Shown here: positions 3,306-61,176 of the stretch, piece by piece
Numbering within the stretch: position 1 is the first letter of the stretch
Layout of the letters: the number at the start of each line of letters is the position of its first letter
Assembly (NCBI GenBank): GCA_905331295.1
Contig: CAJNYD010000065.1
Coordinates: 124,001 to 188,000, forward strand
Origin: Rotaria socialis
Lineage: Eukaryota
Direction of reading: 5' to 3'
Length of the DNA: 64,000 nt
Made by a program: the position numbers and the translations under genes
Notes under the pieces: model-generated
What the model saw: only the letters and a program-made list of their open reading frames with translations
Told to the model about the DNA's origin: nothing
Database searches by the model: none

Positions 3306-4848
3306 AATGGCGTCTGTTACGCCTTGTGAACCTTTATGGCCTTGGGAAATGTCGGAGACACACAAGGAAACCGTTTGGTATCGCATAGTTGGTCATGCCT
3401 TGGTCAATGATTAATGATTGGAGTTGGTTCGTTAGCAACACATGATACTCTGTTCAAGTATGCATTTACTATAGTTTCATTGAGCTTGGTATGCTTTATA
3501 GATACAGAATTGAATTTGATGCTACGCTGTTGTATGTATACATTTTGAATTACTTTGTAATTCAGTTGCGTCATGAAGTCAATGTGCATGAGTCATTCGA
3601 ATTATAAGATAAATATTTAGGTTTTATTCACTGTAATTTTATATTTATTTAACGGAATAAAACTTTACTTGAATAAGTTCATTGTTTCAGTTTTTCTTTT
3701 CTGTCGACTTAATTAAACTCAATGATATATTACGAGGTATCGAAAACCAGTGAAGGATAGATACAGAGAGTTCATGTCTAGAACAATTAGCAGAGAAGAA
3801 AGCTTAAGCAAACCAGCAAAGTAATATTAGAGACGATGTGCCCATGATACACGAGGAGGACATCTCTTCTACGTGGAAAAGTGATGCAAAAACCATGACT
3901 TTCGATCTAGGATGGGATGAAATGAAGTAAAGCTAGCCATCATTCCTTCTGTCACACTCGACAGCAATTGAGATCCTCGTCGAGCACTTACTCTGATATC
4001 ATGATTTGAACCCTATGTTATTTTTCTAAATAATCTTTTCTAATATTATCTTTTTGGATCATTAGCAAGTACAGTAATGATCTTGAAAACTGTCATCTTC
4101 AGACAACTGTCGATATGATAAAGATAAAGCTAAAAGAACTAAAATACTCCATCATAGCTATAAATAGTGCAAATCTGTGAATGAGATAAAAGTTCTAAAA
4201 ATCTATATCATCTTCAGTTCGGTTTGCGAAAATGCCACTGTTTCTTGGTTAAGTTAATCTAAAAAGTATGATTTTAATATTTTTCAACAAAAAAGTAGTT
4301 GTTAGCAATCAAAAAGTTCGAATCAGATCCGCATTCGCATTATTGCTCTAGTTGAGATCACGTAATATTTGTCTAGTACATTTATACCGCCATCTTATCG
4401 TTTTTCTCATTGGTCAAAATACGAATTATACTGACAAATAGGAATTTTTCTTGCGCTTTTTTTCTTAGCGGCTTATTTTTTTCTAAATTCTACCTAACAT
4501 CATTATAGAGAGAGATAGGATTTGCTAAAGTGTTAATTCAATTCTTTCTTTTCACTAGATTTTAATGTACTTAGACTTACGTCAAAAGAATTCAAATGTA
4601 ATCATGTTAGAAGAGACAATAGATTCATTTTATAGTTGAAAAAGTTAATTGGTTTTTCCTCAATTACCGCTTTAATTTTTACCAAAACCATGACTGAGTA
4701 TGAANNNNNNNNNNNNNNNNNNNNNNNNNNNNNNNNNNNNNNNNNNNNNNNNNNNNNNNNNNNNNNNNNNNNNNNNNNNNNNNNNNNNNNNNNNNNNNNN
4801 NNNNTGTGAAACACGATAAAGCTCGTTTTCTGGAATCCGTCTACCACG

Positions 4849-5085
4849 CACTGTAAAAAAAATCCGTAGAATACTAAACCCAATAAGGGTTGATGAAAGT
4901 GCAACGTATAATAAACCCTTTTTACCTTTTTAAAAATTTTCATAAACCCTTGAAGGGTATTTTCCACATAATCATAAACCCTTCAAGGGTTTATGAAAAT
5001 TTTTAAAAACGGAAAAATGGTTTATTATACGTTGCACTTTCGTCAACCCTTAAGGGTTTAGTATTCTACGAATTTTTTTACAGTG
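4849..5085. mobile_element. CACTG...CAGTG foldback MITE (CMC-like, non-autonomous)
   Basis: Ends CACTGTAAAAAAAATCCGTAGAATACTAAACC and GGGTTTAGTATTCTACGAATTTTTTTACAGTG; ~110-bp near-perfect inverted arms; no coding capacity. Confidence 0.85.
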
Positions 5086-5783
5086 TGGGTAGCTCTCTCT
5101 GAACTATACCTGAGATTCACTATATTAGAATGGTTTTTATCTCGTTCTGTACAAAATTTGGTGCTCTTCCAGATGAAACTATTTACAACCAGATAAACAA
5201 ATCTTTTTGATCAAATAGGTACATCAGGATATTACGGAAATAGAGATCACAAAACTTTCTACTAAACGTTTCAATTTCGATAACAAAAAATTTGACGTAT
5301 AAATTATTACATCACAGTCTGCTTACTTCTTACTCTAAATCTAAAATGTCGATCGGCCAGGTTACCTTTTGTTATTCGAATTATGATCTGTAAAAAATTC
5401 ATCTAAAATAATTGTGTTTCATAGAAAAGATATTGAAATGAAAGAAATAATAAGTATTCGTTTAATAAAAGAAAACATATCTCATTAATTTAAAAATTAA
5501 TAAAATTTTATTTTCATTTGTAGTAAATAAAAGCAAAATAAATATTTTAATTTAAGATTTTCTCTCAAATGAAACATATTAAATTAATCAGAAAAACATA
5601 AAAGCGGTTATTTTAATTTTTTTTAAACAGTTAATTTACACAGATTTATTTCGTTCAATTAAAATAAACTTTAACACAATATAATTTGAATAGCAAACGA
5701 AAATTTGTTTCTTATGTGTATTGATTGTTAATAATCATAAATAATTTTTCACAAAATAAAATCCAAGTTGATATTATTTTCTT

Positions 5784-7986: not shown

Positions 7987-10964
7987 GTTTAAGCTGCTTT
8001 TTTTAATAGTAACTACAATAATTAATCGAACGAATATAGCTATTTTTCACTAGCCTATATACTTGTTTTACTCAACGTTCATTCTTACTCAACCGTAAAA
8101 AATACTTTTGATATTTGTTTTTATTTTTTATATCATAAAAGAAAAGAAAATTTTCGAATATTCTCGACTCATTAATCAACATTCCTTTTCTCTTATATTT
8201 TTCTCGTCGTTATTCTAATTTTACATACGCAATTATAGATGATTATCAACATGATCATGTCAAAATATTTTTCTGTATCGATAAATATTAGAAAAACAAC
8301 AACAAATAAATGTTTATCAAGTACATGCATATTTTTTTCACAATCACTCTATGATTCGATGTTATTATTTACTTTAAATAATAACAAATAATATTTAAAT
8401 TCAATCTCTGAATTTTTCTCTTTCAGAAAATATTACTTATAATTTGATTCACAATCCAAAAAGGATCTCTTCATTGTTGTAGTTGTTGTTGTTCGATGCG
8501 AAGTAATATAAATCTAACTGAAAAATTTGATTCAAAACAACATTTCGTTTACAATACTATCAACTGAATTCAAATTTCTCAATGATTCTTTAGTAATAAT
8601 TGGATATAATATTAAAAAAAATTATCGAAAATATGACTTAATAAGCCTTGATAGAAAAAAAAAGAATATTTGTATTCATGGACATATTGAGAACAGTCAT
8701 TATGACCTTCTCAGATGCCGGTACAGAGCTACAGATCATGACGTGAATTTGGGTAGTTTAAGACACGCTTTTAATAAGGGATTACAACAGCATGAACAAT
8801 TTAAAATCAAATCTATTTCTTANGGGTAGTGTAAGACACGCTTTTAATAAGGGATTACAACAGCATGAACAATTTAAAATCAAATCTATTTCTTACCAGA
8901 TTGTAAGCTAGTAAATACTCTCGTACATGGCGAGATGGAAATATATTTTAAGGAAGAGAGAGTTTCTCATAATAAAAAGGACCACAGTTTCTTGTTTCTT
9001 TATTTCTATTTTTAACAACGGATGAAATTTGTAACTAGTAAATTATTTTAACTGTCTGTGATCGAAATTATCTAAAGTTTCAACTAATTGAAGAATTTGA
9101 TTGACATATGATTGTTCTTTTACTGATTGCATGAGAATTGCAAACATGGTTTTGAAATGTATCGCGCTTTTCCCTAACCTTGCATCCAGGATGTGTGGGA
9201 GACAAAGAAAGCATCTTTTTTCTTTTGACAAGGGCATCGTTTTGATTTTCAGTTATGGTAATTTCCCGGTCAAGCTTGTATCCAAGAGATTGTAGTGCAA
9301 GTTTCGTTCTCATTCAGCACGACGCTCATTGTGAGACTTAGTAAGAGATTTTTTCAATTGTCCTAAAAAAAGTCCGATGGATCATCTTCTTTTGAATTAA
9401 ATTCATCAGCGGATGTGTCATCGAATTCTGTTTCAACATCTAAATTTCTCTTTAGATTTGGTTTACTTGCCATTTTTTAGAATTCAGTACCTGTCGAGCT
9501 CTACAGACGGAGAGTTGACATTTTTCCAGGCAAGAAAATCCGAGAACGGTCATCATAACCAATATTACTGGTAAGAATATTTTCATCAAGAGGTAGCAAA
9601 ATCATTCGAACACATGACAATAGTATTCGAATCACTATTGGAAGTGAGCAATTAACGAATCATCTGAAAAATAAAACCTAGAAACGATAGATGGCAGGTT
9701 ATAAATAGGTAACAGTCATATGTAACACGAAGGACAGTAGTGGGTCCATGTGGACCTACCTTTCATTTTTTGTCTCTTGAGACTTTTATGTACAATACGA
9801 TATGGTCTATGGCTCTCACTAGCAGACTAGCGATTAGAAAATGAAATAATAGGAGAATGAAAATTATTTATTCATTTCTCTTAGTTGTGATTAATAGAAA
9901 TAGGATTTTTTTTCAAAAAAGAACTTATTGGAATAAAAAGTTTTGTAATGACAATTTGTAACTGTCTTATCTCATTCAAATGGTAATTAACTAAACGATA
10001 TATATTTCTTTCGTTTTATTTATCTTCCGCAAAGATAATATTAGAAACTGATATGTTTCCGAATCGGTTATAACGTTGACTATCAGCATGTGATAGAAAA
10101 AGACAATGACGATTTATTCAAGTGATCTTTCTTACTTCTACATCTGCTGTGCATCATTTCGTTGAGTAATAAAGTTAAAAAACTAAGCAAATACAATTGA
10201 ATTTAATCTTATCGTAGCCTCACATATTCTCATCTCCATAGAGAATATTTAGCACTAGAAGTATCGATAATGTGTGACGAAATGATCTTTCTTTAACATC
10301 ACACGACCTATTGTGCGGTTATGTAAGACTAGACGTAAAAGAGAATACATTTGTACGATTATCAGTTAGTAAAACTTAACATGAATATTTTCATTAGTAT
10401 AAGTTGAATAATTCTGAATGCAACTTCTCTACAAAGCATCAAGACTCATCGTGATATTCATTGAAATAGAAAGAAGAAAAATGAATCGATGAAGATTTTA
10501 TTATTTTAATAAATTTAAATATATATTAATTCTTTTTGATAAACATATAAATTTCATTTTACTTTCTTCTTTTTCATTGTGATTCTATTTAGAAAATAAT
10601 CATGTCATCGATGATTTAGCTTTTTTTTGTGAATACTTATAGTACTATACTCATATTGTATTCATCTTATTGGCGAAAAAAAAAAGAAAGAATAAGAGAT
10701 AATTCCAAGATGAAGGGTATTTCTTCTCCATACTGATAAAATAAAAGACTGAGCATTATCCGTTCTTAGATATATTCTTTTCCAAGAAAGAACAGAACAT
10801 ACGAATCTATGCACTTTTGCAGCTAGATGTAGATGCAGATGTACATTGACCTCTCTCTCTTCCTCTCGTCTATTTCTATTCGAGAGAAGAGAATATATTC
10901 TATGTTATAACAGAACACATTTTTTTTCTCATTGATAATATTTTTGTTTTAGTTTTAGATTAAA

Positions 10965-26337: not shown

Positions 26338-26352
26338 GGACAGTTGCATCAT
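26338..26352 (-). promoter_or_regulatory. Distal arm of putative long-range RNA duplex, copy A 3' UTR: AUGAUGCAACUGUCC
   Basis: Lies 17 nt after the terminal TAA; perfect complement of the segment starting 8 nt after the internal UAG. Confidence 0.6.
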
Positions 26353-26369
26353 AAACTAATAGTGCAGAT

Positions 26370-29118
26370 TTATAAATTTGAAGATGAAATTAAACTAAAA
26401 TTATTAATCGATCGATTTTTATTTGATGACATTGAACGAGCTAAATTAGCTTCCAGTCTTGAACGTATTAATTGATAAATAAGTGCAGATTTTGTTAATC
26501 TAGGTGTAAAACCAAATTGATTAAATGTATTATTATTATTGTTCTTATTATTTTCAAATGAATTTAACTCTTTTATTATTGATACTGAATAAGGTCTTGT
26601 TATATTTAATTTTCTTCTATGATGTATATTTATTCGATGACGATTTGTCGTTATTGTTGCTTTAGATAATGATGATGACGACGATGATGATGATGTTAAC
26701 GATAATGATAATGTTGTTTTTTCAGCTTGCTTAAAAAATGTATCTAAAATAAACAAATAAAATTTTTTTTGTATCTTCAATAAAACTAGTTCAAACCAAT
26801 TGTTGTTGTATGAAGAATAGCAGTTTGTCGTCCATTTCGCAATGAATTGTGATGATTGTCGGTGAATGATGCAACTGTCCCATGTCCCTATGTTTGAAGA
26901 GGTTGAATAGATTTATTTCGAATTGAAGATTTCGAAATAAGTACAAGAGTTTTTGAACCTCCGATAGAAAGACGAGTTTTTTGTATTTCATCTAAATTAT
27001 TCCATTCTTCAGCAATAACTGTTGCTGGTTTTAATATTTCAAAATTCGTTCGATATCTTTGTATTGTTTGATATTTCATTATCATTGGATCATTATCTGA
27101 TGATAAACAATTATTTGCTCTATTTGATGTGGACAATTTTTCATTAGTATGAAAACAAGTTTTATTTTCATCTTTTTGACGTATCGTATAGGAAATAACT
27201 GGTTTTTCTATTGATGAATTTTGCTGATCGTTGGATTTGGGCACTTGTTTATTTAATGAACGCGAAGGAAAACAAGAAATAGGTGTTGCATTAACTTTAC
27301 GTATATTTGGTAATGATGATATAGCACGTTTTTGTTCAATAAAAGGTAAACTATTTTTTCGTTCTAATTCATTATAAATACATTTATACCCTTTTAAAGA
27401 TTTTAATGGAAAAATTTTTTGTCCATGACGAATTTTATCAAAACATTCAATTGATAATACTTTTTTTTTTGTTTTCAAGAAAAGAAATATAAAGTATAAT
27501 AAAGAAATATAAGAAGAAGACGAAAACTTACAAATAGATTCTTTAACAACAGGTGGAATAGCTTGAACAAGTGTATTTGTATTTGTTGTTAATGCTGGAT
27601 TAACATTTATTTCAATTAGCCAAACTTTCATATCTTGATCAATCATAAAATCATAACCATACAGACCAAAACAACCAACACGTCTTTTTAATCTCATGCG
27701 AATACTTTCAATTACATTTAACATAATACGTTGAATGATTTTCTTTAGAAAAAAATTCATTTAATTTTTGTTTTCAGAATTCCTTAATGAAATATTTTAA
27801 CTTACTGGTAAAACATTTAAAATCCAATCTTGTTCAAGATTTTTATTTAATGCAACATTTTTATTAATATAATCACTAAATATATAAATAAAATAAAACC
27901 GAATGAATATATTTGAATAAGCATACTTGAATTGTTCCATTGTCCATGCTGTTTCTTCTTTAAGATCATAATATTTCGGATCTTTTTTTTGCATATACTA
28001 AGGATTTAATAAAATAGATAAAAGAATTAACTTTTTCTGATAAATTTTTATAAAGAAAATTAAACCTGATTAGTCAAATGTGTAAGAAGATTTTCATCAT
28101 TATTATCAAAATCAAACATTGAAAGTCTAATATAACCAGAATGATAAAAAATAAGAAGCGGTTTCACACTTGATATGAGCATATAACATCGAATATCAAA
28201 TTTTTTTCCATTAATTAATAATGGATTCATAATATAACTATTTAAAAAGAACAATTGAAAAGTTAATTAAACAAGGAAAACTAAAGATCAAACTGTTGAA
28301 CAATTCTTTTCATTGGTTTAATTAATATTTGTTTTTTCTTTTCTAATGAATCGATTTCTGAAAATTTTTCTTTTAACTCTTCAATATCACGAACAAGATA
28401 AATCCCTTTTCCTATTTCAAAAAATGAAAAACAAATAAGACAGACTTTCTTTGCATATTAATTAACAAACCTTGATTAAGTCCACTTGGTTTACAAATCC
28501 AAACATCACCAGCTAAAAAAAAACCAAAGAGAAATATATACGAAGAATTCTAATTAACAAACGTTTATGTATATTAAAAAATGCATCTCGATCATTTTTC
28601 TCATCCAATTTAAATGTTTGTGGAACATATTCATTTAAAGATAAAAATTGTTGTGGACGTTTCTGCATTGTCATTGACATTTTTTCATAAGTTTGTAATG
28701 ATTGACATAATTGTACTTTAGTTGTAAAATAATCTTCACCTTGAATATGATTGACCATTTGTTCACCATCTTTAAATAAATTCCAATTTATACTTTGAAT
28801 GCATTGAACCCATTTTATTTTAAAATCATCAATTTTTTCCAATTGACGTTCATAACCAATTGATGTTAAAATATTTTCTATTCTATTCAAATAGAAAAAA
28901 AGAATTCATTGAACAAAACAAATAAAAACAAAACTTCTTTACAATTCTGAATTATTTCCAGCCCCGATATAACATTTTGATATTGGTTCAGGATAAAGAG
29001 AATTTTCCTTGTGAATTTCATTTTTCTTAACATGATTAACTAGTCGACTTTCAACATTTGATGAATTTGATGTTGTCGAAGGATCAGTTTTATTTCGTAA
29101 TAAATTTTCTTCAGTCAT
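26370..29118 (-). CDS. TTLL10: TTLL10-like tubulin glycylase, copy A; first in-frame stop TAG 26890-26888, in-frame extension to 26370
   Basis: WICKPSGLNQGKGI, YIMNPLLINGKKFDIRCY, HLTNQYMQKKDPKY..LKEETAWTMEQF, FGLYGYDFMIDQDMKVWLIEINVNPAL; GEQMVN and NQYMQKK are TTLL10-type motifs. Confidence 0.88.
26866..26890 (-). promoter_or_regulatory. Proximal arm of putative recoding RNA element, copy A: UAG GGACAUG GGACAGUUGCAUCAU
   Basis: 15 nt (26880-26866) are the exact reverse complement of 26352-26338 on the same transcript. Confidence 0.6.
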
Positions 29119-30112
29119 TTAACTAAAATATTTAATTCTTTTTTTATTATTAAATTCTTGCCAATAAATATGATTAAATCAAATGATTTTATTATTTTTC
29201 TTTTATTTTCATTATATGATTTAAATTAAAATGATAAAAAAAGTAAAAACCTCGACGGTCAATAAAATTTATTAAAATTAAAGTTTGACTTATTTGTTCA
29301 AAATAAACAAATAAAAATCAATATAATATTATTTTCACTTTCTTTCTTTCTTCTTTTTTTCGTTTTACCTATAAAATAAAATGAAATAAAACGAAGTGAA
29401 CAATCAAGAGTATTGTTACTTACTTATTACTTTTCTTTTCTCTTTTCTTTTCTTTGGTATCCTATTCTAGAACATACTATTCTTAACTTGCTCTCCGTTC
29501 TTCTCTTTTTCATCAACAAAAAACATTGATGTTAATAACAACCAAGCTAATTCTGATTCTTCTTTTTCTTCTTTTTGTTTTAATTTAAATTTAGAATTAG
29601 ATCAATTTTCTTTTTGTTTTGTTTTGTTTTTTGAAAACGACATTTCTTTCTTTTCATTAGCAAAGGATCTTCTAATAAATTAAATTAATTCCATAAAGAT
29701 TCCATTTTATTCATAACCTATCGTAGAAAATTTAGCTCAGAAAGAATAAACAAAATCTATATTTTCATTGTTCTACTCGAAAATTAATAAAAAGCACTTG
29801 AAAAAAGGAAAATATTCATCGATGAGAATGTCTCACTATTTAATAAACACATTCAAATTCTTTTGAATTTGTTTTTATTCAATATTATTTTATTTTATTA
29901 TTAACTATTTTCTTTTACTTTGACGACGAACAAAAACAAATATGTTTATTTTCTTTTTATTTCAATTTATTGAAAATATTGAAATTGTAAGCATATTGAT
30001 AATTCAGTATGTTATAAACTGAACTTGAAAAGAATACATTTCTTTTAATATAGTTAGAATAATTGTAAAAAGAACGACTCTTGCCGTTGAAATGTACACA
30101 ATTAGCCATTAA

Positions 30113-31913
30113 GAGAGGGTCCGCGGAACCACTTGCTAGGAGTCGGCCGCCGGTAAAATTTTGATTTTCGGTTTAACTATTTTAAATTTAAGGTCTAGTC
30201 AAACCATAAGTGAATCCAAAATATTCGATCTTTCTGATGGGCCGGAGAAAAAAACCAGCGTTTGCAAGTTATACACCATTTATATTTGGTCAAAAAATGA
30301 AGTTTTTAGAGTGTCAGTAGTATTTTATACTTTCCTCCGCGTCTGCTCAATCGTTTGACTTCGGAAATGTCTCAAAAGATAGAGAAATGTTTTCTCTACA
30401 AAACCTATTCAATGATTTATTTATCCAGAGTCATATATCATTAGATATTACCGATATACAGACAAAATTTCGATTGGTTAAAATGAGGATTTCTCAGTAG
30501 TTTGACAATACCCACGTTGGATCATGTCATCCCAAATTAGTTTGCATATTTTCTGAAAGCCCTTGAAATTCTGCATCTGCTATGGTATTTCTTATTCAGA
30601 TAAAAGTTGAGCGAAAATAGTTAGTCTACACCACAAATGTTGACATTGGATAGTTTTCTCTGTTCAATCGGATGCAAGATCAGTTGAGTATATTCTGTAT
30701 GATTTTTCAAATACAAGATATGATTTCAGATTCGTAATCAGCACGAAAAGTTGATCACAAAAATATTATTTGCTTGATTCCAAAGTTATTTCAGCTGAAA
30801 TAGACCTACAGCGTAGCAACAATTTGAAGCATTTTTTCGAATACTTTCTGGTATGTCTATTTAATCATTGAGTCAGAGACCTAGAAGTAAGAATTTGGCT
30901 TTATTTAGAATCTCTGAACATTTAGCTTGAAAATCTGCTATGTAACTTTCTCGGTTCATGCTTTGTCGTTGAGCAAATTAAACTTTTCTCGATGCTGTCG
31001 AAAATCGATATAAATGAGTTAGAATTGCTATCATTTATCGGTGCTTTTATCATCACAGGTTGTCTTGATAACAAAATGATTTACATATTTAGAATCAGCG
31101 TAGGAAACTACGTGGATTCATGTAGTTTTTGGAAAAAATATTTGTTTTTCTAAAAACTACTCGATTATACGTAGTTTCATACGCTGATTCTAAATATGTG
31201 AATCATTTTGTTATCTGGATAACCGGTAACAATGGAAGTACCAATAAATAATACCAATTTTAACGGATTTATATGAATTTTCGACAACATCGAGATAAGT
31301 TTAATTAGCTCAACAATAAAATAAAACCCGAGAAAAGTAAATAGCAGGTTTTGGTGTGCCGTAGAAAGACCGAAAGGAAAAATGTCGAAAGGGAAAAATA
31401 TCGAAAGGAAAAATATAGAAAATGACCAAAGGAAAAATGTCGAAAGAAAAATGTCGAAGGAAAAATATCGAAAGAAAAAATATCGAAAGGGAAAAATGTC
31501 GAAAATTTGCATTAAGATATTTTTATTCTTGAAATCATAATAGCATCATAGCATAAATCATAGATAAATAAGAGTTATAAAGAAAAATACACATATCCAA
31601 TATTTACTAGTTGTTGCTGTTGTATTCAGNNNNNNNNNNNNNNNNNNNNNNNNNNNCATTTCCGAAGTCAAACGATTGAGCAGACGCGGAGGAAAGTATA
31701 AAATACTACTGACACTCTAAAAACTTCATTTTTTGACCAAATATAAATGGTGTATAACTTGCAAACACTGGTTTTTTTCTCCGGCCCATCAGAAAGATCG
31801 AATATTTTGGATTCACTTATGGTTTGACTAGCCCTTAAATTTAAAATAGTTAAACCGAAAATCAAAATTTTACCGTCGGCAGACTCCTAGCAAGTGGTTC
31901 CGCGGACCCTCTC
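30113..31913. mobile_element. TTAA-flanked non-autonomous DNA transposon with long TIRs (Kolobok-like termini), containing a nested insertion and a gap
   Basis: TTAA at 30109-30112 and 31914-31917; TIR GAGAGGGTCCGCGGAACCACTTGCTAGGAG... about 255 bp near-identical (identical spurious ORFs 30161+ and 31668-); purine-purine termini. Confidence 0.85.
31370..31506. repeat. ~15-bp tandem array GAAAAAT(A/G)TCGAAAG, ~9 copies; probable subterminal repeat of a nested element
   Basis: Directly visible; begins where the internal palindrome of the host element breaks off (~31355). Confidence 0.85.
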
Positions 31914-32820
31914 TTAAGACGTTCTAAATTGGCTAGACTAACTGTTAAGCAAGTTTTTCCTTTCAATTACTATAAAAAAAGTTTATTAGCTTTTTCTTTT
32001 GAAAGATAAACAAGTAGAATTTGTTCTCTTCGATATAATAGATAAAAAGACGTGTAAATATAAAAATTTTCATTAAATTGAATGATACGTTTTTTGGATA
32101 TTTTATTACAGAAACATTTTATCAAATAAATTAAAAAGAAAATATTCATTTAATTCAAGATAATATTATAAAATATGGTTGTCAATCAAAAATGAATTGA
32201 TTACATTGGCGCCCTCTTTTTCCTTGACCGATCATAAGTAAATAGGTAAGCGAATAAAATTTATGAAGATATTTCATTGGTTTAAAATTCTAATCTTTGT
32301 TTATATATTTAAAAAGTTGCTCTTGAATCAATCACTCAATGGAAGAGAAAAATCAATGAATTTGTTAATTGTTATTCTTCTGAATATTTGTAGAATTGAC
32401 AGTTCCAAGCTCGTAAGAGAAGAAATGAAAAAGATTTTCTATTTCAATATAAAATAAATACTCTAATATTTAATTTTTTTTCTCAGATAAATTTTCTGTG
32501 AATGAAGGTAAATAATTTAGTCGTATAGAAATAATCAAATTAAACATATTTAAATAGGAATTTCTAGAAAATGGAAAAGTTGTTCGATCAATAAATTCTA
32601 TCAATTAATATTCTACTGATAATTCAAATGAAATAGTTTCTTTTTGTTGATCTTAAAAAAGCAATAGCAGTTCTATTGAATTAGTAATCTAAATCTTAGA
32701 TACGAAATTTGAAAACAGAAAAATAAAAAATTCTTAATTGAAATGTTTGTGATAATATTTTCACTATTTATTTTAATAAATTATTAAATATTTAGATAAA
32801 AAAAAGTAAGAAAAGAAAAG

Positions 32821-52625: not shown

Positions 52626-52876
52626 ACGGGTGGGCCATAAATAATGATGGTCTCCGTATTTCTGGAATATCTCCGCCAATTTTCATTCGTTAGATCTAAT
52701 TTTTTTTTGAACGATGAGTCATTTGATTCTCTACAAAAGTGGGTATTTGCTGTTGCGTTCGAATAGATCAGTTTCATTCGCGAAAATGAAAAATAAAGAT
52801 ATACAAAAACTTGTACTTTCAAAGTACGAAAATGGTGATGGACCGACAAAGATTTTTCGAGATCTCAACGGTACGC
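52626..52876 (+). mobile_element. Tc1/mariner-type transposon left end with transposase N-terminus, cut by a gap
   Basis: TA followed by ACGGGTGGGCCATAAATAATG terminus; HTH-like start MKNKDIQKLVLSKYENGDGPTKIFRDLNG. Confidence 0.6.
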
Positions 52877-52976
52877 NNNNNNNNNNNNNNNNNNNNNNNN
52901 NNNNNNNNNNNNNNNNNNNNNNNNNNNNNNNNNNNNNNNNNNNNNNNNNNNNNNNNNNNNNNNNNNNNNNNNNNNN

Positions 52977-54165
52977 AACCTAAATATTTAATTTCCTTCA
53001 CCCATTCTATTTTGTTATTTCCGCATTTCAATGCTATATCTGGATAGCCGATCGCTCTAGCAGAAAACAGTGCTTGCGTTTTGTTGTAATTAATCGGCTG
53101 TGCTGTTAGCGTGCAATAGTATTTCAAGTCTTTGAAAAAACTTGAGAGTTTTTTTTCAAGTTCAAGACATTGCAATGAATATTTTAACCCGATACCACCA
53201 CCCATTATCGCCGCAAGGTCACCTGTGAAATGGTGACTTAAACAGCAATTTAGAGTTTCTGTAAGATCGCTATGATAAGTAATAAACAGCAACGGTGTAA
53301 ATATTGAGCCTTGAGGTCCTCCTTTGCGTATGCGAAACCACTTCGAGCGTTCACCTTTTATTGCAATAAAAGCCCTCCTGTTCATCAACCAATTCTCTAT
53401 CCAGATCAAGTACTTTCTTGGAATTCCCATTCTTTTCAGCTTTCCAATACATCCCCGAAACCATAATTGATCGAAAGCACTCCGAAAATCCACAAATATC
53501 GTTCCCACTGGTGAACTATTTGCCATCAAACTTGAAATATGTTCGAAAAACAACAATACTCTTGTTTGTAGTCTGAATTTTGGACGAAAGCCACTTTGTG
53601 TATCTGGAAGAAGACCTCTTCTGTTCACGATGTTCATAAATCTAGTTTGGAACAATTTTTCGTTAACTTTGAGAAAGACGTCGAGTAATGATATAGGACG
53701 CGTCAATCCTGGGTTACATATAGGATCTTTTTTTGCTAGAAGTAGCATTCTACTATCTTTCCATCTATCTGGCATCGTTCCTTCAGAGAAAGAATGATTA
53801 AATATTTCCACGAGAAGCGACCAGTACGACAATGGGAGAAAATTGAAGGTGAAGTTTGATAAACCATGTGCATCTATTGACTTCTTCTTTTTGCGAGAAT
53901 TGACGATATCAATAACCTCTTCGGTTGTGCATAATGGAATTTCTTCATCAAAGTTTTCCCATTGAAGATCAGGACTATCAGTATATGGATGTGGTCGAAA
54001 TATTTCGGATTCACTGAAGAATTCTTCATAATGTTTGCACGCTTCTTCACACATTTTCGGACCGTCCTTGATGACCGTCCCATCGTTGAGCATAAATCCA
54101 TGTAAGGATGACGACGCAGATTTCATACATTTTTTAGCTCTAGACCAGAACACAATTGATCTTGG
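52977..54165 (-). mobile_element. Non-LTR retrotransposon reverse transcriptase, 5'-truncated, 3' end in a gap
   Basis: RPISLLD, QSGFRP, IFVDFRSAFDQLW, KGGPQGSIFTPLLF, HFTGDL (catalytic site altered), IKYLG. Confidence 0.9.
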
Positions 54166-54264
54166 TGTTGAACTGTTCAGTTCAGTTACTGTGAGAGAGA
54201 CATAATTTAATAAGAACACTTTTTTTTTAATATTTTGATCTTTCTAAGACATTCAAGACATTCA

Positions 54265-54629: not shown

Positions 54630-54968
54630 TTGGGGAAGTTAGCACAAGATTCGAGCTTTTCCAGCCCGGATTCGCCTATATGGTTGTGTTGAACTTCATT
54701 TTCGTTGTGTTGGATGCAGAATTTTGAGCTGAATCGAATGGTGTAATTTTTAAAGGGGGTTGCCGATCAAAATCTGGCGCTTTACCTGGAAATACTGCTT
54801 TTTCTGAAAATCTTATAGAAGTAATTCCAGCCCGGATTCGCTGCTGTAGCTGTGTTGGTTCTGAAAATGGTTGTGTTGAATTCAGAATGAAATTCTACAT
54901 CGAATGATGCTAAACTTGTATGGGGTCATCGATCGAAAAATTTCTGGTCTCACCCAAGTCATCCCTCT
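54630..54968. repeat. Repeat or TE fragment with internal direct repeats, abutting the large gap
   Basis: TTCCAGCCCGGATTCGC and TGGTTGTGTTGAA each occur twice (~54659-54693 and ~54825-54880). Confidence 0.5.
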
Positions 54969-56372
54969 NNNNNNNNNNNNNNNNNNNNNNNNNNNNNNNN
55001 NNNNNNNNNNNNNNNNNNNNNNNNNNNNNNNNNNNNNNNNNNNNNNNNNNNNNNNNNNNNNNNNNNNNNNNNNNNNNNNNNNNNNNNNNNNNNNNNNNNN
55101 NNNNNNNNNNNNNNNNNNNNNNNNNNNNNNNNNNNNNNNNNNNNNNNNNNNNNNNNNNNNNNNNNNNNNNNNNNNNNNNNNNNNNNNNNNNNNNNNNNNN
55201 NNNNNNNNNNNNNNNNNNNNNNNNNNNNNNNNNNNNNNNNNNNNNNNNNNNNNNNNNNNNNNNNNNNNNNNNNNNNNNNNNNNNNNNNNNNNNNNNNNNN
55301 NNNNNNNNNNNNNNNNNNNNNNNNNNNNNNNNNNNNNNNNNNNNNNNNNNNNNNNNNNNNNNNNNNNNNNNNNNNNNNNNNNNNNNNNNNNNNNNNNNNN
55401 NNNNNNNNNNNNNNNNNNNNNNNNNNNNNNNNNNNNNNNNNNNNNNNNNNNNNNNNNNNNNNNNNNNNNNNNNNNNNNNNNNNNNNNNNNNNNNNNNNNN
55501 NNNNNNNNNNNNNNNNNNNNNNNNNNNNNNNNNNNNNNNNNNNNNNNNNNNNNNNNNNNNNNNNNNNNNNNNNNNNNNNNNNNNNNNNNNNNNNNNNNNN
55601 NNNNNNNNNNNNNNNNNNNNNNNNNNNNNNNNNNNNNNNNNNNNNNNNNNNNNNNNNNNNNNNNNNNNNNNNNNNNNNNNNNNNNNNNNNNNNNNNNNNN
55701 NNNNNNNNNNNNNNNNNNNNNNNNNNNNNNNNNNNNNNNNNNNNNNNNNNNNNNNNNNNNNNNNNNNNNNNNNNNNNNNNNNNNNNNNNNNNNNNNNNNN
55801 NNNNNNNNNNNNNNNNNNNNNTTTTTTAATATTTTTTTAAACTAACTTGTTTCTATCACTTATCGTCATTCCTAGCTCATCTATACTCTTTCAATTAATT
55901 GATAAGTACTTCTCAATTATAGATTACGTTCAAATTAATTAGATAAGTCGATTAATTGATTGATAATCATTTGTTAAAATTGATAATATGTTAAATTAAA
56001 AGATAGAACATCTTTTAATTCAGACATGTAATTGATTTAAAAGATGTTTGACTACAAAATTAGATCAAACATTTTTTTAAAAGGTGTTGTTTCACCGAAT
56101 TAGATACTACTGTATTAATTTAGATATGGATTGCTATATTTTTAGATATTACATTAAATGCATGCCATTCTAATTTCCATTTATATTAAAAGTGAGAAAA
56201 ATTTCAGGCTGAAAAATAACATATGGCATTAATTATCACATAAATAACTGAGACTGAATTTTATTCTTCTCGCCGACGGCAGCGAGCATAATAATAAACA
56301 CATAAATACGGAAAGATAGAGACAGAGACAGTCGAAGATGAAGTTCAATCATTGACTGTAAACATTTAAAAT

Positions 56373-58246: not shown

Positions 58247-58260
58247 GGACAGTCACATCA
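58247..58260 (-). promoter_or_regulatory. Distal arm of putative long-range RNA duplex, copy B: UGAUGUGACUGUCC
   Basis: Begins with the terminal TGA of the extension; complementary to the segment after the internal UAG. Confidence 0.6.
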
Positions 58261-61176
58261 TGTTGTTGTAGATGAAGACAATTTCTTCTTCTTATTTGAT
58301 CGATCTCTATTGGCTGATATGGATTTAGCTAAATTGGCTTCAAGTCTTGAACGCATTAGACGATAAATAAGAGCTGATTTAGTTAGTGGTTCTATTGAAT
58401 CTTGCTGAGAATTATAATCATCATATTCCCATGGATGCGTTCGATGAACTATTTCTTTAATTATTGAAGGTTTTTCAGGTAATAAACTATGACCACGTAA
58501 TGTTGCGGAATGTGAACGATTTTTATTTGATTTCTGTAAATTTGCCGATAAATTAGATGATTGAATATCAACACCAGTAGCTGTTATGGATGATGATTCA
58601 GATGAATTTGCCGATGAACAATTTGATGATTTTTCAATTTGATTATTTCTTTCATTGCCGTTTTCATCATCTTTGTCTTTGTCTTTTTGTTGTTGTTGTC
58701 TTTGTTTCAGCCAAGTTCCTGATATTAAAAAAATCAAAAAACGAATCAAAATTCTAAGGTAACAAACCAAGTGTTTTTGTGTCCACAACAGTAAGTTGTC
58801 TTCCAGTAACTAGCCAATTATGATCTTTTTGATAAGAAGAAGTTGATGCAACTGCCCCGTGTCCCTATGTTTGAACTGTTTGAATATGCTTTGTAGGAGT
58901 TGAAGATTTCGAAACAAGTACGAGAGCTTTAGGTCCTCCGATTGCCAAGCGATCTTTTTGTGTTCGATCTAAATTTTTCCATTCTTCAGCAATGACAGTT
59001 GCTGGTTTCAAGATTTCAAAGTTTGTTTTATATCTCTGAATAGTTTGATATCTCATCACCATTGTTTCATTAGATGAAGGATTAACTGCTGGAAATGAAT
59101 GATTTGTTGTTGTTAATGGGGATAATAACGAATCTGATGAACGATTTACTTTTGGACGATCGATATTGGAACGACTTGTACTCGATATAATATATTTTTG
59201 TGTTGCAGTTATTGACTGTTGTTGTTGCTGTTGTTGTTCATTTGCTTTATGGAAGCTTTTTGGAGAATTCGGTGGAGAACTATTCGAATTTGCTTTAGGC
59301 ACTGGCACTATTGGTGGAGCAACAATGGGAGCAGGCTTTCGAACATTGGGCGAAGATGATGTTGCTCGCCTTTGTTCAATATAAGGTAACGAACCTTTTC
59401 GTTCTAATTCATTATAAATGCATTTATATCCTTTTAAAGATTTTATTGGAAAAATTTTTTGTCCATGACGAATTTTATCAAAGCATTCAATTGATAATAC
59501 TTTTTTTTTGTTTTCAAGAAAAGAAATATAAAGTATAATAAAGAAATATAAGAAGAAGACGAAAACTTACAAATAGATTCTTTAACAACAGGTGGAATAG
59601 CTTGAACAAGTGTATTTGTATTTGTTGTTAATGCTGGATTAACATTTATTTCAATTAGCCAAACTTTCATATCTTGATCAATCATAAAATCATAACCATA
59701 CAGACCAAAGCAGCCAACACGTCTTTTTAATCTCATACGAATACTTTCAATTACATTTAACATAATGCGTTGAATGATTTTCTTCAGAAAAAAATTCATT
59801 TAATTTTTCTTTTCAAAATTCCTTAATGAAATATTTTAACTTACTGGCAAAACATTTAAAACCCAATCTTGTTCAAGATTTTTATTTGATGCCACATTTT
59901 TATTAATATAATCACTAAATATATAAATAAAATAAAATAAAATCGAATGAATATATTTAAATAAGCATACTTGAATTGTTCCATCGTCCATGCTGTTTCT
60001 TCTTTGACATCATAATATTTCGGATCTTTTTTTTGCATATACTAATTATTTAATTAAATAAATAAATAGAAACAAATAAAAGTTTTCTAATGAAATTTTT
60101 CTTAAGAAAACAAAACCTGATTAGTCAAATGTGTAAGAAGATTTTCATCTTTATTATCAAAATCAAACATGGAAAGTCTAAGATAACCGGAATGATAGAA
60201 AATGAGTAGTGGTTTAACACTCGATATAAGCATATAACATCGAATATCAAATTTTTTTCCATGTACTAACAATGGATTCATAATATAACTATTGAATGAA
60301 AAAAACATTTTGTTTTTTATTTTCTTAATTGAAATTATAAATCAAAAAAACAAACCGTTGAATAACTCTTTTCATTGGTTTAATTGATATTTGTTTTTTC
60401 TTATCCATAGCATCAATTTCAGCAAATTTACTTTTCAAACCTTCAATATCTCGAACAAGATAAATTCCTTTTCCTATTTTAAAATAAAAAACAAAACAAA
60501 TAAGAAAGAATTTCTTTCAATATTAATTAAAAAACCTTGATTAAGTCCGCTTGGTTTACAAATCCAAACATCACCAGCTGTAAAGGAAAAAAAAATGATA
60601 TATTTAAAATAAACCAGTAGAATTCAAATCAACAAACGTTTATGTGTATTAAAAAATGCGTCTCGATCATTTTTCTCATCTAATTTAAATGTTTCTGGAA
60701 CAAATTGATTGAGGGATAAAAATTGTTGTGAACGTTTTTGCATTGTCATTGAAATTTTTTCATATGTTTGTAATGATTGCCATAATTGTAATTTAGTTGT
60801 AAAATAATCTTCTCCTTGAATATGATTAACCATTTGTTCGCCATCTTTAAATACATTCCAGTTAACACTTTGATTACATTGAACCCATTTGAATTTAAAA
60901 TCATCTGTTCTTTCTGATTGACGTTCATATCCAATCGATGTTAAAATGCTTTCAATTCTATTCAAACAGTTAATTTTTTGATCTTTTATAGAAAAATCGA
61001 TTAGCTTACAATTCTGCATTATTTCCAGCGCCAATATAACATTTAGGTTGAGGTTCGGAATAAAGAGTATTTTCTTTTTGAAGTTCATTTTTTTTTGAAT
61101 GGTTTGATGTTTTTGTCTCAGGTAAAGAGACATTGGGATGATCAGATGTTGATGGTGAATGATGTTCTTCAGCCAT
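58258..61176 (-). CDS. TTLL10: TTLL10-like tubulin glycylase, copy B; first in-frame stop TAG 58867-58865, in-frame extension to 58258
   Basis: Same exon structure and TTL-domain motifs as copy A; start MAEEHHSPSTSDHPNV at 61176. Confidence 0.88.
58844..58867 (-). promoter_or_regulatory. Proximal arm of putative recoding RNA element, copy B: UAG GGACACG GGGCAGUUGCAUCA
   Basis: 14 nt (58857-58844) pair with 58260-58247 through 11 Watson-Crick and 3 G-U pairs. Confidence 0.6.

Follow-up and report, generated by a model that had tools for sequence, protein, structure and literature searches.

Among known cases of stop codon readthrough associated with RNA structure, alphaviruses and the fly gene kelch carry stems that begin 8-12 nt past the stop and close loops of 101-268 nt, and MuLV combines an 8-nt spacer with a pseudoknot (Firth et al. 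2011, PMC3159437). Tombusvirids rely on a kissing interaction with a local stem-loop (PMC5893793), and the local stem of drifter is sensitive to its distance from the stop (PMC13170385). When the 3' half of the long-loop stem of kelch was deleted, readthrough was left unchanged (Hudson et al., 10.1101/2020.06.22.165522), which speaks against reading a function out of conservation. Comparative criteria for the recognition of readthrough were described by Jungreis et al., who searched for structure in 100-nt windows and whose main text, in the part available, does not mention rotifers (PMC5100048). Our own literature search, with most subscription papers outside its reach, found no report of stop codon readthrough in rotifers or bdelloids or in TTLL10 or other TTLL genes, and, with supplementary candidate lists likewise outside, no cellular case whose 3' arm coincides with the second stop or follows it.

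The gene analyzed here (copy A) lies on the minus strand of a 64,000-nt stretch of Rotaria socialis DNA, referred to as the window (assembly GCA_905331295.1, contig CAJNYD010000065.1, positions 124,001 to 188,000). Its frame reads IQPLQT, meets a TAG, stays open for 91 nt, crosses a 53-nt GT-AG intron and ends with a TAA at 26372-26370. A first-pass annotation had proposed readthrough of this TAG together with an RNA duplex between the sequence behind it and the 3' UTR, and all its coordinates, the 53-nt intron, the 154-aa extension, the 7-nt spacer and the 15-nt complement were exact on re-check. The features of copy A are as follows.

26370..29118, minus strand: TTLL10-type gene, copy A, 10 coding exons
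26888..26944, minus strand: 57-nt GT..AG segment, 18 codons plus the stop, retained in spliced contigs
26888..26890, minus strand: internal in-frame UAG in the context CAA-ACA-UAG-GGA, candidate readthrough codon
26881..26887, minus strand: 7-nt spacer from stop to helix, of equal length in 15/15 sequences
26866..26880, minus strand: proximal arm, from +8 to +22, within the extension ORF
26744..26796, minus strand: 53-nt intron in the helix loop, 91 nt past the UAG, found as a joint in runs X1 and X2
26427..26498, minus strand: conserved coding block LTKSALIY..RSRLEANLA..S at the end of the extension, predicted helix
26370..26372, minus strand: final stop TAA
26338..26352, minus strand: distal arm in the 3' UTR

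The arms of copy A (26880-26866 and 26352-26338) are perfect 15-nt complements, and the loop between the arms, 345-649 nt after splicing in the sequences compared, comprises nearly the whole extension. This arrangement resembles that of the alphaviruses and of SL1 of Drosophila kelch, whose stems of 11-14 bp likewise start 8-12 nt past the stop, enclose a long loop that is not conserved and show conserved synonymous sites, as in the rotifer gene; judged by the features of such extended stems, the rotifer stem starts at +8 in all sequences and synonymous conservation in the arm is enhanced. In contrast to those systems, the rotifer loop is longer and contains an exon junction, the 3' arm is found at or past the second stop instead of inside the extension ORF, and the stop is UAG-G or UAA-C, not UGA. 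Moreover, kelch possesses a local hairpin, whereas none is conserved in the rotifer gene, and kelch SL1 failed in the reporter test. With the type III signal of MuLV gag-pol the rotifer gene shares the UAG-G, a purine-rich spacer and a structure starting about 8 nt downstream, but it is a cellular gene, its helix is completed by a strand hundreds of nucleotides downstream, and no compact pseudoknot is predicted, although the folding programs used cannot predict pseudoknots. The PRTE-DRTE interaction of tombusvirids (PMC5893793) likewise links UAG readthrough to pairing with the 3' UTR; there, however, a bulge-loop of 6-7 nt bridges some 3.5 kb to dock onto a local stem-loop, whereas in the rotifer gene no stem other than the long-range pairing is conserved and a conserved local stem-loop is absent. 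Of the viral parallels drawn in the first-pass annotation, the position of the helix matches the spacers of MuLV and the alphaviruses, as it also does that of kelch and the distance-sensitive stem of drifter (PMC13170385), while the tombusvirid comparison fits less well than that with alphaviruses and kelch, because the long-range pairing here constitutes the stem itself and not a kissing contact. Drifter/vvl and headcase (PMC13170385; PMC3159437) are similar in being cellular animal mRNAs with a UAG or UAA and a stem just 3' of the stop, but their hairpins are local and lie within about 60-80 nt. Finally, the poly(A) foldbacks engineered by Eberle et al. (2008; PMC2689704) also bring the 3' end beside an early stop located upstream of an exon junction; theirs paired about 50 nt downstream of the stop, whereas the rotifer helix is natural, conserved and shorter (14-15 bp), begins at +8 and spans a coding extension.

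Copy A encodes 583 aa up to the UAG and 738 aa with readthrough in the spliced frame, which contains no stops other than this UAG and the final TAA. All nine introns (9/9) are present as joints in assembled contigs, and the frame equals the database model P0014, bar 19 codons skipped in the model. The protein contains the TTL/ATP-grasp domain (PF03133); where it aligns with a Rotaria socialis protein the identity is 100%, and of the 13 protein matches in that search 12 were named Rotaria or Adineta. The name TTLL10 is carried by about 72 of the 120 listed full-length matches (175 in total; counted by hand) and by most of the best named non-rotifer matches. By its domain and its named relatives, copy A is therefore a bdelloid rotifer TTLL10-type tubulin polyglycylase, an enzyme of cilia. 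TTLL10 is described as elongating glycine chains on monoglycylated tubulin (10.1101/2024.03.31.587457). The rotifer gene has the intact TTL domain in common with the TTLL10 polyglycylases, its own polyglycylase activity being putative, and differs from them in a pre-stop block and an extension that, among the proteins examined, are limited to one bdelloid subclade. In a structural model of the homolog L010, read through the stop, residues 45-433 form the TTL domain with a confident fold, and the tail is disordered apart from a single helix close to the extension end. Profiles of the pre-stop block and extension gave no significant match in 111 other proteins, including Brachionus and acanthocephalan ones, and weak matches of the extension-block profile to TTLL10 of other animals (E 0.6 or worse) were dismissed as chance upon inspection. 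A third bdelloid TTLL10 type, from Adineta (P0071-P0074), is without the pre-stop block and the extension and offers a natural control.

A metagenome scan provided 13 confirmed homologous loci out of 184 candidate stretches. The stop occupies the same codon in copies A and B and in 13/13 of these loci, where it is TAG in ten and TAA in three, and it is therefore conserved in 15/15 sequences representing 10 distinct groups, with the UAG-G context in 12/15. At the TAA loci (L003, L005 and L006) the context is TAA-CGA-GGC, the +4 base having changed from G to C. These three contigs are 99-100% alike and constitute one lineage, known from metagenome contigs and nested among the TAG sequences. In this lineage the AG of the 57-nt segment has been lost, the stop has been kept, a 195-aa extension is open, and the sole remaining in-frame GT..AG options have acceptor scores of -8 and -15. 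Retention of the stop upon loss of the AG suggests that selection maintains the stop and not a splice site, and this comparison is the strongest single argument for selection on the stop, drawn from one lineage. Selenocysteine insertion or a reassigned code is excluded, the codon being UAG or UAA and not UGA; TAG occurs a single time among the 739 codons of copy A, which uses TAA as its final stop. Frameshifting was rejected, as the extension continues the frame of the gene and a slippery heptamer is absent ahead of the helix, and so was reinitiation, since an ATG near the stop exists in copy A alone and is out of frame. The protein P0011, which has Q at the stop, was set aside, and P0192 shows W at the position of its final TGA; alternative-code gene calling may explain both residues, and neither was used as evidence. 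An Rfam search returned two matches, both far under threshold, and none of 89 candidates from a viral collection and none of 40 from a prokaryote collection was confirmed.

The extension varies between 122 and 212 aa among seven distinct sequences (154 aa in copy A) and is open in six of them, and 18 further database proteins match it. Over its whole length pS is 0.46 and pN 0.34, whereas the block at its end has a pS of 0.37 and a pN of 0.08 over 22 codons (pN/pS about 0.2), with identities of 0.87/0.97/0.70 at the three codon positions. This block corresponds to the helix at residues 798-821 of the L010 homolog model (pLDDT about 74-81) and is, to judge from its substitution pattern, under purifying protein-coding selection. 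At codon 131 of its extension L004 has a second in-frame TAG, again followed by G, where its relatives have Trp; this could be a nonsense allele, an assembly error or a case of double readthrough.

A paralog with the same exon layout, copy B, is located 32 kb from copy A.

58258..61176, minus strand: copy B, exon layout as in copy A
58921-58865, minus strand: 57-nt segment of copy B
58865..58867, minus strand: internal UAG of copy B, bridged by contigs of 4/4 runs
58844..58857, minus strand: proximal arm of copy B (+8 to +21)
58719..58767, minus strand: 49-nt intron within the helix loop of copy B
58247..58260, minus strand: distal arm of copy B, its first three bases being the final UGA, with three G-U pairs

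Copy B encodes a short form of 601 aa and a long form of 787 aa (arithmetic from model P0025), and the 49 nt of its loop intron are absent between contig pieces in X1, X5 and X6. The two copies are 95-100% identical, introns included, at 27930-27430 versus about 59960-59450, but only 62-81% identical across the stop and extension, and the high identity likely reflects recent gene conversion between the paralogs.

The distal arm had initially been placed just past the final stop. This applies to copy A, where its start lies 21 nt downstream of the TAA's first base (34 nt in L010), but not to five of the seven distinct sequences (L002, L003, L004, L007 and copy B), in which it begins at the final UGA itself; the arm is thus found either at the second stop or 21-46 nt past it. 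It is present in 8/8 loci that reach that far and in copies A and B, with an identity of 0.96 compared to 0.35 in the flank before it and 0.52/0.36 after it, and the X1 contig carrying the UAG of copy A also covers the distal arm without differences. In the proximal arm, pairwise identity at 4-fold sites is 0.92 versus 0.60 upstream, and its synonymous sites are conserved. The window contains two places with perfect inverted repeats of at least 15 nt, a GC content of at least 40% and a distance of at most 1 kb: the arms of copy A and a palindrome at 4841-5092. Shuffled versions of the window contained 0 such places in 20/20 cases. When the proximal arm was compared with 10,464 windows of the minus strand, it paired best with the two distal arms, that of copy A and that of copy B. 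After shuffling of the 100 nt surrounding a distal arm, a partner with at least 13 of 14 pairs arose by chance 5-35 times in 20,000, depending on the arm. The complementarity of the copy A arms is not due to chance. A scan for a stop, a spacer and a 13-bp helix also gave other hits in the window.

In a pairing table of 9 sequences (L006 was left out, being near-identical to L005) and 16 pairs, 97.2% of the 144 cells are paired. Ten of the 16 pairs are invariant, three vary on one side via G-U, two end pairs vary on both sides and one shows a mismatch only. The covariation score was reached by 21 of 500 shuffles, and the pair at +6 was picked after inspection of the alignment, so that covariation of the arms, with its two two-sided end pairs, is suggestive only. 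Of the two properties for which the first-pass annotation had looked to an ortholog alignment, the other, conservation of the stop, holds throughout. Pair +21 is broken in L007, and L001 has an A at +9 that would mismatch the common distal arm, its own contig stopping short of that arm. RNAalifold recovered the 15-bp helix unaided. Pair probabilities are 0.92-1.00 (0.99 with the first 7 nt past the stop masked), and the duplex is more stable in the sense than in the antisense orientation in 7/7 comparisons (-22.7 versus -12.9 kcal/mol for copy B). No conserved local hairpin was detected after the stop in 10 sequences (z -0.9 to +1.2). A lower helix including the stop was predicted in some sequences, but was rejected since its partners differ between them. 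The tails of P0191 and P0192 (MMQLSE and WCNCP) match translations of the distal arm and hint at its presence in two more sequences.

In the surroundings of the two copies, a flavin amine oxidase gene closely follows copy A at 26096-24684 and is syntenic in L002:1087-1608. Just upstream of copy A, at 30109-31917, lies a TTAA-flanked element with 261-bp terminal inverted repeats (98% identical), a palindrome in its interior and a short run of N, which is likely a non-autonomous DNA transposon. The element at 4841-5092 is a 250-bp, MITE-like palindrome, and a perfect inverted repeat around a single N at 8751-8895 is likely an assembly artefact. An ORF for a reverse transcriptase (PF00078) with an N gap is found at 52819-54243, between F-box-like copies at about 46.7 and 56.4 kb that are 66-68% identical, and six long ORFs at 54880-55845 result from an 853-N gap at 54969-55821.

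Taken together, our preferred reading, to which we assign a probability of roughly 0.6, is that the conserved internal stop is read through at times and that this is stimulated by the 14-15-bp helix 8 nt downstream. Readthrough itself we consider very likely; the role of the helix is less certain, though it is probably the stimulator. Most ribosomes would terminate at the UAG, yielding the 583-aa enzyme, whose TTL domain is complete. The RNA helix, which would lack a local partner and form only with the 14-mer at or just past the second stop, may, when at the mRNA entry channel, hamper release-factor action or stall the ribosome, and a near-cognate tRNA would then be accepted now and again, adding 122-212 residues whose end comprises the conserved protein helix followed by a tail of largely basic character. 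The constant length of the 7-nt spacer favors such a ribosome-linked role of the helix. Candidate functions of the tail, all of them guesses, are microtubule binding, targeting and autoinhibition.

The stop could, alternatively, belong to an intron that is mostly retained, the 57 nt being spliced out in a rare tissue or stage and the helix beside the acceptor governing retention. The transcript data consisted of assembled contigs from four runs of four studies, from which rare splice forms and edits drop out; the RNA origin of the runs is presumed, and the contigs are without introns. In copy A, spliced contigs bridge the 57 nt and the stop in 3/4 runs (X4 does not cover the stop), those of X1 and X2 also carrying the joint of the 53-nt intron, and in copy B the segment and stop are bridged in 4/4 runs. 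No joint seen in the contigs of either copy removes the 57 nt. A further joint listed for copy A leads from 28901 to 26267, the single listed joint of copy B is unrelated to the segment, and for X6 two joints located at a repeat were discarded. The metagenome contigs L010 and L011, which span the full length and are likely transcript assemblies, possibly retrocopies, have none of the nine introns but retain both the 57 nt and the TAG. Of the three findings named in the first-pass annotation as speaking against readthrough, none was made, and its reading is supported: constitutive splicing of the 57 nt is contradicted by their retention in spliced and intronless contigs, transcripts ending before the last exon by contigs extending into the last exon and the distal arm, and homologs losing both the UAG and the pairing by the preservation of stop and complementarity alike. 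The in-frame GT..AG is present in 12/15 sequences, its acceptor score (1.2-6.7) falls within the normal range of 25 real introns (6.2 +/- 4.4), and 37 of the 55 database proteins covering the site, out of 70, splice out the 57 nt. However, 17 others skip the stop via five other junctions, as is usual for gene finders near a real stop, one reads Q and none ends there. If the stop is indeed read through, public models of these genes likely contain a false intron. The donor is poor (-2.4 to 1.3 versus 6.3 +/- 2.7 in the 25 real introns, with a minimum of -0.55), GC content is higher (0.25-0.33 versus 0.18 +/- 0.05), the 3' end is T-poor, and in L003, L005 and L006 the AG is lost though extension and helix are intact. 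The segment is 48, 57 or 60 nt long, always a multiple of three (as are 10/25 real introns), and its pS of 0.31 and pN of 0.18, with an identical result in frame +1, give a coding signal that is weak and not frame-specific. The intron alternative, already raised in the first-pass annotation, is weakened by the donor, the missing joint and the TAA lineage, and in the form of rare splicing we regard it as improbable. Still more improbable is A-to-I editing guided by the duplex, by which the stop would become a Trp codon. A single edit would convert UAG to UGG, a double-stranded region is nearby, and stage-specific editing could be lost in contigs; but the stop lies outside the conserved helix, its predicted partners vary between sequences, UAA would require two edits, letters other than the stop number 0 at this site in X1 (both copies), X5 and X6, and L010 and L011 read TAG.

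A different function of the helix is conceivable if readthrough were due to the stop context or a trans factor, and the helix folded the poly(A) end back to counter nonsense-mediated decay or favored termination. A stop upstream of the last exon junction is a classic trigger of decay, although this is not known for rotifers. In 13 intron-bearing sequences the stop precedes the last exon junction by 91-154 nt, and the distal arm invariably lies at the start of the 3' UTR. Engineered 26-nt foldbacks suppressed decay in human cells (PMC2689704), and the long stem of kelch was dispensable for readthrough (10.1101/2020.06.22.165522). Nevertheless, a foldback needs no fixed 7-nt spacer, which is constant in 15/15 sequences, and no conserved local hairpin that might act as an alternative stimulator was seen in 10 sequences. 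We consider this explanation unlikely, though it is the main rival of the preferred reading. Slightly less doubtful, though still tentative, is a combination in which one helix couples both stops, stimulating readthrough, holding the poly(A) end near the early stop and thereby evading decay; each ribosome that reads through and arrives at the second stop would melt the helix, a built-in feedback that would set the ratio of short to long enzyme. The arms might, on the other hand, be an inverted DNA motif or a relic, and the extension merely leaky or dead sequence. The arms resemble what we take to be a C/EBP-ATF site, the arm core barely varies, which leaves covariation thin, and the extension of L004 contains a nonsense codon. 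Yet differences between arms give G-U on the mRNA strand where the other strand would have A-C, the motif is broken in copy B while pairing is kept, and the end block of the extension is under purifying selection; we consider this explanation very remote.

If readthrough stimulated by the helix is true, programmed readthrough would be added to rotifers, and with it a cellular readthrough signal made solely of a long-range helix. Such a layout would escape screens in which the first 60-100 nt past the stop are folded, and similar signals may therefore be overlooked in other genomes. The gene would provide a small natural test case for whether readthrough in animal mRNAs is promoted by long-loop stems, as it was not by that of kelch, and for whether a natural 3' UTR foldback shields early stops from decay. 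Should the coupling of both stops by one helix be correct, it would represent the first case of recoding in rotifers together with a natural 3' UTR foldback. In bdelloid rotifers, an enzyme of the tubulin code may thus exist in two lengths that would be set at translation.
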